From Escherichia coli (lineage in GTDB: Bacteria; Pseudomonadota; Gammaproteobacteria; Enterobacterales; Enterobacteriaceae): DNA of 64,000 bases. The notes under the pieces were generated by a model. It was not told the DNA's origin. It saw only the letters and a program-made list of their open reading frames with translations, and ran no database searches. The stretch lies in assembly GCF_016903815.1 (NCBI RefSeq), contig NZ_CP069973.1. One strand, given 5' to 3'. A program made the translations under genes and the position numbers. Positions 18,006-21,000 of the stretch are shown in pieces (the first letter of the stretch is position 1; each line of letters opens with the position of its first letter).

Positions 18006-21000
18006 ATGAGCGGAAAACCGGCGGCGCGTCAGGGCGACATGACGCAGTATGGCGGTAGCATTGTCCAGGGTTCAGCCGGGGTGCGCATCGGTGCCCCCAC
18101 CGGCGTGGCCTGTTCGGTGTGCCCCGGCGGGGTGACGTCCGGCCATCCGGTCAATCCGCTGCTCGGCGCGAAGGTCCTTCCCGGAGAAACCGACCTTGCC
18201 CTGCCCGGCCCGCTGCCGTTCATCCTCTCCCGCACCTACAGCAGTTACCGGACAAAAACGCCCGCGCCGGTGGGGAGCCTCGGCCCCGGCTGGAAAATGC
18301 CTGCGGATATCCGCTTACAGCTGCGCGATAACACACTGATACTCAGTGATAACGGCGGCAGAAGCCTGTATTTTGAGCACCTGTTTCCCGGTGAGGACGG
18401 TTACAGCCGCAGCGAGTCACTCTGGCTGGTGCGCGGCGGCGTGGCGAAACTGGATGAAGGTCACCGGCTGGCCGCACTCTGGCAGGCGCTGCCGGAAGAG
18501 CTTCGCCTGAGTCCGCATCGTTATCTGGCGACGAACAGTCCGCAGGGGCCGTGGTGGGTACTCGGCTGGTGTGAGCGGGTGCCGGAGGCGGATGAGGTGC
18601 TGCCTGCGCCGCTGCCGCCGTACCGGGTACTGACCGGGCTGGTGGACCGCTTCGGGCGCACACAGACGTTCCACCGTGAGGCTGGCGGCGAAATCACCGG
18701 CGTGACGGATGGTGCCGGGCGTCACTTCCGGCTGGTACTGACCACGCAGGCGCAGCGGGCAGAAGAAGCCCGGCAGCAGGCCTCTTCCGGCGGGACGGAA
18801 CCGTCCGCTTTTCCTGATACCCTGCCGGGTTACACCGAATATGGCCGGGACAACGGCATCCGTCTGTCTGCCGTGTGGCTGACGCACGACCCGGAATACC
18901 CGGAGAATTTACCTGCCGCGCCGCTGGTGCGCTATGGCTGGACGCCACGCGGCGAACTGGCGGCGGTGTATGACCGCAGCAATACACAGGTGCGCAGCTT
19001 TACTTACGATGATAAATACCGGGGCCGGATGGTGGCGCACCGTCACACGGGCCGGCCGGAAATCCGTTACCGTTACGACAGCGACGGGCGGGTGACAGAA
19101 CAGCTAAACCCGGCAGGCTTAAGCTACACGTATCAGTATGAGAAAGACCGCATCACCATCACCGACAGTATGGACCGCCGTGAAGTGCTGCACACGCAGG
19201 GCGAAGGCGGGCTGAAGCGGGTGGTGAAAAAGGAACACGCGGACGGCAGCGTCACGCAGAGTCAGTTTGATGCGGTGGGCAGGCTTAAGGCACAGACGGA
19301 TGCCGCAGGCCGGACGACTGAGTACAGCCCGGATGTGGTGACGGGACTCATCACGCGCATCACCACACCGGATGGCAGGGCATCGGCATTTTACTATAAC
19401 CACCACAACCAGTTAACGTCAGCCACCGGGCCTGACGGGCTGGAAATACGCCGGGAATATGATGAATCCGGCCGTCTGATTCAGGAAACCGCACACAACG
19501 GCGATATCACCCGCTACCGTTATGATAATCCACACAGTGACTTACCCTGCGCAACGGAAGATGCCACCGGCAGCCGGAAAACCATGACATGGAGCCGTTA
19601 CGGTCAGTTGCTGACCGTCACTGACTGTTCCGGTTATGTAACCCGTTATGACCATGACCGTTTTGGTCAGGTGACGGCGGTGCACCGCGAGGAAGGGCTG
19701 AGTCAGTACCGCGCATACGACAGCCGTGGACAGTTAATTGCGGTGAAAGACACGCAGGGCCATGAAACGCGGTATGAATACAACGCCGCCGGTGACCTGA
19801 CCGCCGTCATTGCCCCGGACGGCAGCAGAAACGGGACACAGTACGATGCGTGGGGAAAGGCCATCCGTACCACACAGGGCGGTCTGACGCGCAGTATGGA
19901 ATACGATGCTGCCGGACGGGTCATCCGCCTGACCAGTGAAAACGGCAGCCACACCACCTTCCGTTACGATGTACTCGACCGGCTGATACAGGAAACCGGC
20001 TTTGACGGCCGCACACAGCGTTATCACCACGACCTGACCGGCAAACTTATCCGCAGCGAGGATGAGGGGCTGGTCACCCACTGGCACTATGACGAAGCAG
20101 ACCGCATCACACAGCGAACGGTGAATGGTGAAACCGCAGAACAGTGGCGGTACGACGAACGCGGCTGGCTGACACAAATCAGCCATCTCAGCGAAGGCCA
20201 CCGGGTGACGGTGCATTACGGGTATGATGAGAAAGGCCGCCTGACCGGTGAGCGCCAGACGGTGCATCACCCGCAGACGGAAGCACTGCTCTGGCAGCAT
20301 GAAACCAGACACGCTTACAACGCGCAGGGACTGGCGAACCGCTGTATACCGGACAGCCTGCCCGCCGTGGAATGGCTGACTTACGGCAGCGGCTGGCTGG
20401 CAGGCATGAAACTCGGCGACACACCGCTGGTGGATTTCACCCGCGACCGCCTGCACCGGGAAACGCTGCGCAGCTTCGGCCGTTATGAACTCACCACCGC
20501 TTATACCTCTGCCGGGCAGTTACAGAGCCAGCACCTGAACAGCCTGCAGTATGACCGCGATTACACCTGGAACGACAACGGCGAACTCATCCGCATCAGC
20601 AGCCCGCGCCAGACCCGGAGTTACAGCTACAGCGACACCGGCAGGCTGACCGGCGTCCACACCACGGCAGCGAACCTTGATATCCGCATCCCGTATGCCA
20701 CGGACCCGGCGGGCAACCGCCTGCCCGACCCGGAGCTGCACCCGGACAGCCCCCTCAGCGCATGGCCGGATAACCGTATCGCCCGTGACGCGCACTATCT
20801 TTACCGGTATGACCGTCACGGCAGGCTGACGGAGAAAACCGACCTCATCCCGGAAGGGGTTATCCGCACGGATGATGAGCGGACTCACCGGTACCATTAC
20901 GACAGCCGGCACCGGCTGGTGCACTACACGCGGACACAATATGCAGAGCCGCTGGTCGAAAGTCGCTATCTTTACGACCTGCTGGGCCGCAGGGTGGCAA

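Follow-up and report, generated by a model that had tools for sequence, protein, structure and literature searches.

An orphan Escherichia coli Rhs protein with a single N-terminal PAAR repeat, a putative T6SS effector loaded in trans

How could a Rhs toxin that begins with a PAAR-like sequence reach a T6SS spike when its gene stands alone among housekeeping genes? The question is raised by a gene directly after rpmE in a stretch of 64,000 nucleotides of Escherichia coli DNA (contig NZ_CP069973.1), hereafter the window, in which coordinates refer to the plus strand unless otherwise stated. The translation of 18006-18140, in which a sequence-only reading had recognized a PAAR-like N-terminus, is the start of an intact Rhs ORF of 1390 aa (18006-22178). 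Based on NCBIfam NF041261, Pfam and the annotation of strain 7/2, this is the Rhs toxin gene of the 'RhsF' locus, E. coli rhs locus 11 in the priA-yiiX interval. Locus 11 has been catalogued between priA and yiiX in E. coli (PMC2935791), and the finding of a toxin gene at this site is already known. The upstream neighbour is rpmE, encoding ribosomal protein L31 (17634-17846; ORF list, and annotation in strain 7/2, where this stretch is identical), followed by its intrinsic terminator at ~17866-17891, where terminator-like hairpins were read at 17871-17890 and 17875-17891, and by an AT-rich spacer of ~115 bp before the ATG of rhs. No sigma-70 consensus was found in 17500-18100 by a crude scan from which silence of rhs is not to be deduced. 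As the sequence-only reading had stated, the gene is isolated: all genes flanking rhs are housekeeping genes, and no T6SS, vgrG, hcp, PAAR or DUF1795/Eag gene and no linked transporter gene was found in the 64-kb window.

In sequence the window is essentially that of E. coli strain 7/2, with gene-for-gene correspondence from sbp to btuB, a 100% match along 17.6 kb on the upstream side and an alignment of 26.5 kb with 0 mismatches on the downstream side. The counterpart of rhs in strain 7/2, WP_032152781.1, is annotated as RHS element core protein and differs by 4 aa; over codons 20-91 the two genes differ at 8 nucleotides, 7 of which are synonymous third-position changes. In a different strain the same gene is split by an IS1, and in the window it is intact.

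The whole protein has the architecture of an RHS element core protein. It scored 2614.7 bits against NCBIfam NF041261 ('RHS element core protein'), an equivalog with a cut-off of 2000 bits whose model includes the N-terminus, with residues 1-1243 aligned to profile positions 1-1261; membership in the RhsA-B-C-F type of E. coli thus extends from residue 1 to the PxxxxDPxGL-type boundary motif of the conserved core at residues 1234-1243. Residues 46-123 (18141-18374) are DUF6531, which plugs the Rhs cage at its N-terminal end (PF20148 in Pfam with E 1.3e-17 to 3e-19; the Tse5 shell in Phmmer with E 5.4e-16), 18375-21500 encodes the YD/RHS-repeat shell (multiple PF05593 matches between residues 209 and 977, TIGR01643 and the composition profile), and residues 1166-1243 (21501-21734) form the Rhs-associated core or C-terminal plug (TIGR03696, E 1e-23; Pfam RHS PF03527). 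The remaining residues 1244-1390 (21735-22175) are an AT-rich polymorphic C-terminus, delimited by a Pfam match, a drop in GC and a metal motif: DUF4329 (PF14220) matched approximately residues 1257-1377 with E 8.7e-16, the GC content is 56-70% in the core versus 28-33% at 21800-22400, and the H[ST]H motif of the family reads HTH at residues 1316-1318. By these sequence features the C-terminus belongs to the Tox-JAB-2/DUF4329 type, whose assignment and family description have been published (PMC3482391), and is a predicted toxin. The protein showed no signal peptide and no transmembrane segment, the Kyte-Doolittle maximum being 0.98 in a 19-residue window.

A GC-rich core, an AT-rich variable C-terminus and a small downstream ORF together make up an RHS element, and all three were found here. 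The downstream ORF, dsORF-f3 (107 aa, 22180-22503), starts 2 nt past the rhs stop and is annotated in strain 7/2 as 'RHS element protein dsORF-f3' (WP_001521836.1). No family in Pfam or NCBIfam matched it, its N-terminus is hydrophobic and signal-peptide-like (Kyte-Doolittle maximum 1.62, residues 3-17), and it is presumed to be the cognate immunity protein. Beyond it lie two IS1 elements. Direct comparison with strain 7/2, where it is missing, delimited an IS1 copy of 768 bp at 22705-23472 (insA/insB ORFs 22760-23457), bracketed by the 9-bp target duplication CGCTCAATG at 22696-22704 and 23473-23481. This newer copy interrupts an older, frameshifted IS1H-like element on the minus strand between dsORF-f3 and yiiX (22573-24042; strain 7/2 annotation 22573-23265, minus-strand ORF fragments 23551-24042).

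What, then, is the PAAR-like N-terminus? Against curated models the single sequence fell below threshold, and the profile check that the sequence-only reading had suggested therefore failed: Pfam PAAR_motif (PF05488) gave E 0.038 and 14.7 bits over model positions 51-69 only, NCBIfam T6SS_PAAR_dom (NF033420), which has a cut-off of 124 bits, gave 16.7 bits over profile positions 68-94 of 94 only, and just 1 of 30 family members reached E<=0.001. Significant homology emerged only with a family profile (A3) built from 30 homologues clustered at 50% identity, which matched the PDB chains 9rce_c (E 2.5e-13), 4jiv_D (8.9e-8) and 4jiw_D (4e-6), as well as the PAAR of Tre23 (9.5e-7), Tas1 (3e-4) and Tse5-NT (1.6e-4). 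In the solved PAAR proteins the match fell every time on the last repeat, to which Rhs residues 2-29 align in 9rce_c, 4jiv_D and 4jiw_D. Sequence comparison thus indicates that the N-terminus is one PAAR repeat, about one third of a domain, equivalent to the third repeat of a complete PAAR. This repeat occupies residues 1-29 (18006-18092; alignments and family profile), reads KPAARxGD...GGxIVQGSxxVxIG, and is the presumed VgrG-contact element. Only 47 residues precede the Rhs plug, compared with ~90 for three consecutive PAAR repeats, and no further PAAR match was found in residues 1-1128. Hidden upstream repeats were considered and ruled out: an in-frame stop lies 13 codons 5' of the rhs start, with no alternative start in between, so there is no concealed N-terminal extension, and the spacer after the rpmE terminator is only ~115 bp. 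Of the earlier proposal of a PAAR domain that caps the spike, the homology therefore holds, and the complete domain does not. A 28-residue repeat forms no three-fold PAAR cone, and from the alignments this N-terminus should be unable to cap the spike alone.

The literal PAAR motif, at residues 5-8, had been read correctly. No fewer than 27 of the 30 homologues retain P5, A6 and A7, and all 30 retain R8 and D11, which indicates that the motif is no chance occurrence; I19, V26, G29, G33 and C36 are likewise invariant. The repeat is followed by an 18-residue linker, G-x-A-C-S-x-C-P-G-G with a Cys-x-x-Cys (residues 30-47, 18093-18146), defined by conservation and by alignment to Tse5; across the 30 representatives, conservation reaches 90% or more at A35, S37, C39, P40 and G41. 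Its end, H47/P48, coincides with the N-terminal cleavage site K47/P48 of Tse5; P48 is invariant, and residue 47 is S or N in most relatives. A PVNP anchor could be placed in ~53 representatives with a length of 300 aa or more; its position is residues 40-51 in 47 of them, including 44 with residues 45-51. AlphaFold2 modelling of residues 1-135 with the 30-sequence alignment gave a mean pLDDT of 53.6, with residues 1-58 below 50; this low confidence agrees with the disorder of Tse5-NT and proves nothing.

The sequence-only reading had also considered that this might be the generic N-terminus of T6SS-independent Rhs proteins, and the first half of that proposal was confirmed. Among 5,426 complete E. 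coli genomes, 5,204 (96%) contain the same N-terminus, with 14,712 copies in all, and it is the generic way in which nearly every Rhs core protein of E. coli begins. K-12 is no exception: it has four intact genes with this N-terminus and is without a T6SS cluster at aspV. The rpmE-rhs junction itself is present in 2,176 of the 5,426 genomes (~40%). For T6SS independence no support was obtained, and some of these proteins are encoded directly behind vgrG: the short-form relative P0039 is directly behind a vgrG, and P0080 is in a vgrG-rhs-rhs-vgrG island. Of four short-N-terminus representatives from outside E. coli with an informative context, two are orphans as well; for the relatives P0046 and P0087 the contigs are too short for context. 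A complete T6SS with vgrG is present in strain 7/2 at aspV, ~4.2 Mb from rhs by record coordinates, and directly behind the vgrG of this cluster a paralogous Rhs is encoded that shares the short N-terminus.

Taken together, we consider it probable that the Rhs toxin-immunity module of the window is an intact orphan of the RhsA-B-C-F type at the priA/rpmE-yiiX locus, and that Rhs is most likely a T6SS effector loaded in trans, so that delivery by T6SS parts encoded elsewhere, which the sequence-only reading had envisaged, is the best reading. In the mechanism that we propose, the YD-repeat cage would enclose the C-terminal DUF4329/Tox-JAB-2 toxin, against which dsORF-f3 would protect the producer as immunity protein, and the N-terminus would be a minimal spike-attachment element with residues 2-29 as its one PAAR repeat. 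By analogy with Tse5, the Cys-x-x-Cys linker would thread into the DUF6531 plug and leave the repeat exposed. We infer that Rhs binds in trans to a VgrG trimer of a distant T6SS locus and is then fired into neighbouring bacteria, as in the case of Tse5. An Eag chaperone would probably not be required, and its absence is unsurprising, as the protein offers it no N-terminal transmembrane segment to bind (PMC4924876). Points against trans loading are the sub-threshold scores with curated PAAR models, the single repeat that is too little for a three-fold cone, the lack of a sigma-70 consensus, the orphan state of two of the four relatives outside E. coli, the uninformative AlphaFold2 model and the excess of genomes with this N-terminus (5,204 of 5,426) over those with aspV-type tssBC, which number 2,278 (42%), a lower bound for T6SS-positive genomes since the survey covered aspV-type tssBC only.

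This excess is also an argument for a different view, that the module is stranded or silent and is exported in few of its hosts, serving instead as a reservoir for recombination of toxin/immunity cassettes or as an intracellular toxin-antitoxin-like pair, with the PAAR repeat as a T6SS relic. Given these counts and the lack of a cluster at aspV in K-12, many copies cannot be fired by an aspV-type T6SS. K-12 nevertheless retains its four copies, no promoter consensus precedes rhs, IS1 elements pile up beside the gene and one splits it in another strain, and a TA-like intracellular role has been reported for Salmonella Rhs (PMC7043789). Against stranding, the ORF is intact over 1390 aa; conservation of its first 47 residues stays strong among proteins with as little as 50% overall identity, and recent substitutions in this part are synonymous; in the matching genome a T6SS is present, and a paralogue that shares this N-terminus is encoded behind vgrG; and the 42% is a lower bound. 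We therefore regard a stranded module as rather unlikely.

Export by a route other than T6SS, such as surface display or another secretion pathway, would accommodate an orphan gene and the many hosts without an aspV-type T6SS, but it seems very improbable for a protein with neither signal peptide nor transmembrane segment and with no transporter gene linked in 64 kb, whose N-terminus shows homology with Tse5-NT as well as with an element of the T6SS spike and whose close relatives are found behind vgrG. Least credible, to the point that it can hardly be entertained, is a complete canonical PAAR domain that by itself caps the VgrG trimer as a cone: the literal motif, the Gly/Val-rich pattern and the routine use of 'PAAR-Rhs' in E. 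coli papers, derived from conserved-domain searches (PMC7216683, PMC10761095), speak for it, but the match is confined to residues 2-29 of the 47 ahead of the plug and always to one repeat, solved PAAR proteins have 93-99 residues and three repeats, repeats 1 and 2 take up ~60 extra residues in long-form relatives, and the curated scores, the lack of any other PAAR match and the lack of an upstream coding extension given above all disagree.

If Rhs is loaded in trans on a spike, the physical mode of attachment deserves attention. The single-repeat class, the dominant E. coli/Tse5-type of Rhs, is conserved and in places linked to vgrG, and therefore may bind the spike in a way so far undescribed, a suggestion we make with considerable reserve. 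Three Rhs N-termini may build one PAAR-like cap, with three cages per spike; a lone repeat may extend one VgrG tip by a strand; or the two thirds that are absent may be provided in trans. Our literature search on the short Rhs N-terminus returned only the labels 'PAAR', 'PAAR-like' and 'cryptic PAAR-like' and no structure of the VgrG contact. For the rhs locus itself the significance is small, and which VgrG, if any, carries an orphan Rhs is a question already in the literature. For annotators, caution is advisable: what is called "PAAR-Rhs" in E. coli has a 28-residue single repeat and no PAAR domain, and curated PAAR models miss it for this reason.

Among known systems, the closest are the RhsA-B-C-F elements of E. 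coli (RhsA/B/C in K-12, RhsF in natural isolates), which share with our module the NF041261 equivalog, the GC-rich core with AT-rich extension, the downstream dsORF-f3, locus 11 and the lack of a linked vgrG; the first 63 residues of K-12 RhsB are identical to those of the window Rhs. The differences concern details only, namely an intact rather than an IS1-split copy, 4 aa relative to strain 7/2 and the extra downstream IS1. The orphan placement of E. coli rhs genes has been described before (PMC2935791, PMC6730261, PMC7216683, PMC10761095), and an orphan, 'neighborless' class of E. coli PAAR-Rhs proteins (Rhs-Nb) is credited to Ma et al. 2017 in a review (PMC6730261).

Canonical PAAR tips (V. 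cholerae VCA0105, 4jiv; E. coli c1882, 4jiw; PF05488, NF033420) contain one repeat homologous to Rhs residues 2-29, xGKPAARxGD...GGxIxxGSxxVxIG. They have three repeats and form a cone, whereas the Rhs N-terminus has one, scores below threshold, would form no cone as a monomer, and continues into the Cys-x-x-Cys linker and the cage. In the long-form PAAR-Rhs proteins P0102, P0103, P0113 and P0061, three repeats are followed by the same linker, plug and cage, the Rhs N-terminus corresponds to repeat 3, and ~60 additional N-terminal residues provide repeats 1 and 2; in the N-terminal 125 residues the identity is ~52%. P0103, a metagenomic long form, has a Pfam PAAR_motif match and is encoded directly behind vgrG in a T6SS cluster. 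The prePAAR/Eag-dependent effectors (Serratia Rhs1/Rhs2, P. protegens RhsA) share the Rhs cage and a PAAR-related N-terminal element with AARxxD at the extreme N-terminus. Unlike these effectors, which are recognized by TM helices together with an adjacent DUF1795 gene, the Rhs of the window has no TM helices, no complete PAAR after the motif and no nearby DUF1795 gene, and the His of the prePAAR motif is replaced by Tyr.

A further comparison is with Tse5 of P. aeruginosa (PA2684; PDB 8cp6), in which a 47-residue N-terminal fragment is followed by P48-V-N-P and the DUF6531 plug in the same register as in Rhs; the shell chain 8cp6_B begins at P48, where the alignment to Rhs also starts at P48. 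Tse5-NT and the Rhs N-terminus are homologous and in register (profile match given above), and the two proteins have in common the lack of a transmembrane segment and of an Eag chaperone, and a cage with a C-terminal toxin. The Tse5 gene presumably adjoins its own vgrG. Tse5 has no literal PAAR motif (MSGLPVSHVGEK...), which is present in the window Rhs, its toxin is a pore-former whereas that of Rhs is predicted to be Tox-JAB-2, and the cleavage-site residue is K47 in Tse5 and H47 in Rhs, where cleavage would be expected by analogy. It has been reported that residues 1-29 of Tse5 are flexible or disordered outside the shell and residues 30-47 are threaded inside it (PMC10684867), and that Tse5-NT (residues 1-47), called PAAR-like, is required for VgrG-dependent secretion (PMC10684867, PMC7376260). 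The physical mode of spike attachment would be shared by the Rhs proteins of E. coli and Tse5 of P. aeruginosa.

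The rhs gene opens with its first codons at window 18006-18140 (+ strand), the start of a 1390-codon ORF (18006-22178). Reading back from the ATG, an in-frame stop comes after 13 codons, before any alternative start, and the rpmE terminator ends only ~115 bp 5' of the ATG, thus no N-terminal extension is hidden 5' of the ORF. The protein matches the NCBIfam equivalog NF041261, 'RHS element core protein', over residues 1-1243 (2614.7 bits; cut-off 2000), so that the N-terminus in question belongs to the model. Pfam identified DUF6531, the plug of the Rhs cage, at residues 46-123 (E 1e-17) and DUF4329 at the C-terminus (E 9e-16), besides numerous RHS repeats and the RHS core motif.

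In the PAAR-profile search that the sequence-only reading had suggested, the N-terminus taken as a single sequence stayed below threshold, with E 0.038 and 14.7 bits for Pfam PAAR_motif (residues 2-20) and 16.7 bits (cut-off 124) for NCBIfam T6SS_PAAR_dom. These sub-threshold matches agree with one another, residues 2-29 always falling on the last of three PAAR repeats (positions 67-93 of 4jiv_D and 4jiw_D, 71-98 of 9rce_c and 68-94 of the NCBIfam profile). A search of residues 1-125 against 1.84 billion representative proteins returned 443 matches, and among those of at least 300 residues with a locatable P-V-N-P anchor, the conserved start of the plug, this anchor lay at residues 40-51 in 47 representatives (44 of them at 45-51), which thus share the short N-terminus of the Rhs protein, and ~6 representatives carried ~60 extra N-terminal residues. 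In the long forms P0102, P0103, P0113 and P0061, three clear PAAR repeats precede a linker, G-x-A-C-S-x-C-P-G-G, and the plug; linker and plug are shared with the Rhs protein, whose N-terminus aligns to their repeat 3. P0103 has Pfam PAAR_motif on record and sits immediately 3' of vgrG within a T6SS cluster. A family profile built from residues 1-47 of 30 short-form (one-repeat) representatives was run against solved PAAR proteins and matched SalCis10 (9rce_c, E 2.5e-13), VCA0105 (4jiv_D, E 8.9e-8), the PAAR region of Photorhabdus Rhs Tre23 (7pq5_L, E 9.5e-7), c1882 (4jiw_D, E 4e-6), the Tse5 N-terminal fragment (8cp6_A, E 1.6e-4) and Tas1 (6ox6_A, E 3e-4), the last repeat being the best-matching part of every target. 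Since these significant matches always fall on the last repeat, the N-terminus is, by profile comparison, truly PAAR-related, with one repeat (~28 residues) plus linker. The suspected PAAR derivation thus held, but a full PAAR domain was rejected, as there is one repeat only and the PAAR family tests failed. An AlphaFold2 model of isolated residues 1-135 gave pLDDT <50 for residues 1-58, which is compatible with a segment ordered in context only and carries no evidential weight.

The annotation of strain 7/2 (NZ_CP023820.1), a near-identical E. coli genome, was mapped onto the window, which spans sbp to btuB (64 kb), with the order priA, rpmE, RHS element core protein, RHS element protein dsORF-f3, a frameshifted IS1H-like element, yiiX, metJ, metB and metL around rhs. 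The name dsORF-f3 marks the element as the RhsF of the older Rhs literature. We did not find any T6SS, vgrG, hcp, PAAR or DUF1795 gene across the 64 kb, confirming that the Rhs gene stands alone after rpmE without T6SS, vgrG or chaperone gene. As an oddity, this orphan position does not survive: it is a catalogued, common and already known feature, the priA-yiiX site being locus 11 (yiiX-priA) of Jackson et al. 2009 (PMC2935791), and vgrG lying upstream at only four of nine Rhs loci in ETEC (PMC10761095). EHEC rhsA-D have likewise been termed orphans, and their translocating VgrG, if any, was called unclear (PMC7216683). Likeness to rhs copies at other loci (e.g. K-12 rhsB) begins 14 bp 5' of the ATG (17992-18005), thus each Rhs element must take its promoter from the local context; a crude promoter scan found no sigma-70 consensus site in the rpmE-rhs spacer.

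Among 5,426 complete E. coli genomes, the intact 301-bp rpmE-rhs junction was found in 2,176, and the N-terminal coding segment alone at 14,712 sites in 5,204 genomes (median three per genome). K-12 has four copies, and the first 63 residues of its RhsB, encoded 3' of nikR with no vgrG nearby, are identical to those of the Rhs protein. This N-terminus is therefore the one with which E. coli Rhs proteins generally begin; the refuting case of the sequence-only reading, a generic N-terminus of T6SS-independent enterobacterial Rhs proteins, applies to that extent only.

Beside aspV, strain 7/2 has a complete T6SS (hcp, tssM, tssA, vasI, a ClpV-type ATPase, tssL, tssK, tssJ, tagH, tssG, tssF, tssE, tssC, tssB, a second hcp and vgrG), and directly 3' of its vgrG lies the gene of a 1499-aa Rhs core protein with the same one-repeat N-terminus and a slightly longer linker, and then a small ORF. 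Delivery by a T6SS encoded elsewhere is thus the most likely reading, a complete system with vgrG existing in a near-identical genome, but what it would receive is a single repeat, not a PAAR domain. Outside E. coli, the short form P0039 lies 75 bp 3' of vgrG and P0080 within a vgrG-rhs-rhs-vgrG island, and P0116 and P0064 are orphans amid housekeeping genes. Two short proteins, P0123 and P0144, have a VgrG N-terminus (MSTGLRFTLEVDGLPPDAF...) running into Rhs plug sequence and are likely vgrG-rhs recombinants, pseudogenes or assembly chimeras. As relayed in PMC6730261, Ma et al. described 'neighborless' Rhs-CTs (Rhs-Nb) related to T6SS2-cluster Rhs, and antibacterial activity of Rhs-CT3 (ClpV2-dependent) and Rhs-CT5 (EHEC Z5014). 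We consider it probable that the Rhs protein would be loaded in trans onto the VgrG of a distant T6SS. Eag chaperones serve Rhs N-termini containing transmembrane helices (PMC4924876); a hydropathy scan found no such helix in the Rhs protein, so that the absence of an Eag chaperone gene needs no explanation.

That in many hosts the rhs module is in effect stranded or silent seems unlikely to us. The aspV T6SS cluster is absent in MG1655, and aspV-type tssBC occurs in 2,278 of the 5,426 genomes, a count of this T6SS type alone, thus Rhs genes with this N-terminus (5,204 genomes) are far more widespread than the aspV-type T6SS. Across 30 representatives, down to ~48% identity over 135 residues, R8, D11, I19, V26, G29, G33, C36, P48 and V49 are invariant, and G3, P5, A6, A7, G22, S23, I28, A35, S37, C39, P40 and G41 at least 90% conserved; judged by this conservation and by the mostly synonymous differences from strain 7/2 (below), purifying selection acts on the short N-terminus, which lacks the appearance of a decayed remnant. 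Other export routes and a canonical PAAR cone are, even jointly, quite improbable, the single repeat and failed PAAR family tests standing against the cone. A record labelled E. coli DH5alpha (NZ_CM135829.1) has full-length tssB/tssC, unexpected in a K-12 derivative, which hints at mislabelling or contamination of that assembly.

Residues 1234-1243 close the conserved core. GC is 56-70% within the core but only 28-33% beyond it, in both the C-terminal extension and the downstream ORF, the classic Rhs split. DUF4329, also the C-terminus of the gene named RhsB (z5488) (PMC7216683), corresponds to the toxin family that Zhang et al. 2012 call Tox-JAB-2, with H[ST]H as part of its signature (PMC3482391), fitted here by HTH at residues 1316-1318. 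dsORF-f3 (22180-22503) starts 2 bases past the rhs stop, has no family match in Pfam or NCBIfam, and from its position is the presumed immunity protein. Its hydrophobic, signal-peptide-like N-terminus (MKVIQCCYFLALVSSHLMAG) hints at a predicted periplasmic action of the toxin, which would fit an Rhs N-terminus without membrane-translocation segment.

Over its initial 17.6 kb the window has 100% identity to several complete genomes including strain 7/2, which shows 0 mismatches over 26.5 kb 3' of the rhs module. All 14 nucleotide differences in 22.6 kb are rhs substitutions (four amino-acid changes, S91N, L785V, A799S and S835P) confined to two short patches, 18065-18277 and 20312-20508, and in codons 20-91 (first patch) 7 of the 8 fall on third positions and are synonymous; this patchiness looks like gene conversion with a paralogous copy of rhs as donor. 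The sole structural difference over the compared stretch is an extra 768-bp IS1 (22705-23472), flanked by a 9-bp target duplication CGCTCAATG (22696-22704 and 23473-23481) and inserted into the older frameshifted IS1H-like element. In strain 20KM2222 (NZ_CP151050.1; matching stretch L001, 6407-11368), an IS1A insertion splits the same RhsF gene, cutting the core (annotated rhsB pseudogene) off the DUF4329 tip, thus the locus is under erosion in some lineages. Between metL and metF lie an unnamed 376-aa ORF (29008-30138, - strand), whose only match, to an IS1/IS1595-type zinc finger, is weak and below cut-off (E 3e-4), and a 517-aa metallophosphatase/5'-nucleotidase (30271-31824, + strand); K-12 is not known to carry such an insert.

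How one PAAR repeat could engage a VgrG trimer is a point of some interest, and the question is common to Tse5 of P. aeruginosa. The E. coli Rhs protein has identical architecture in identical register, the Tse5 shell chain (8cp6_B) starting at P48 and aligning from P48 of the Rhs protein (E 5e-16). Tse5 is cleaved between K47|P48, the DUF6531 plug anchors its residues 30-47 within the cage, and residues 1-29 are not resolved in the structure (PMC10684867). While the Tse5 N-terminus has been labelled 'cryptic PAAR-like', or a PAAR-like fold without signature motif (PMC7376260; PMC9637101), the E. coli Rhs protein has kept the literal PAAR motif.
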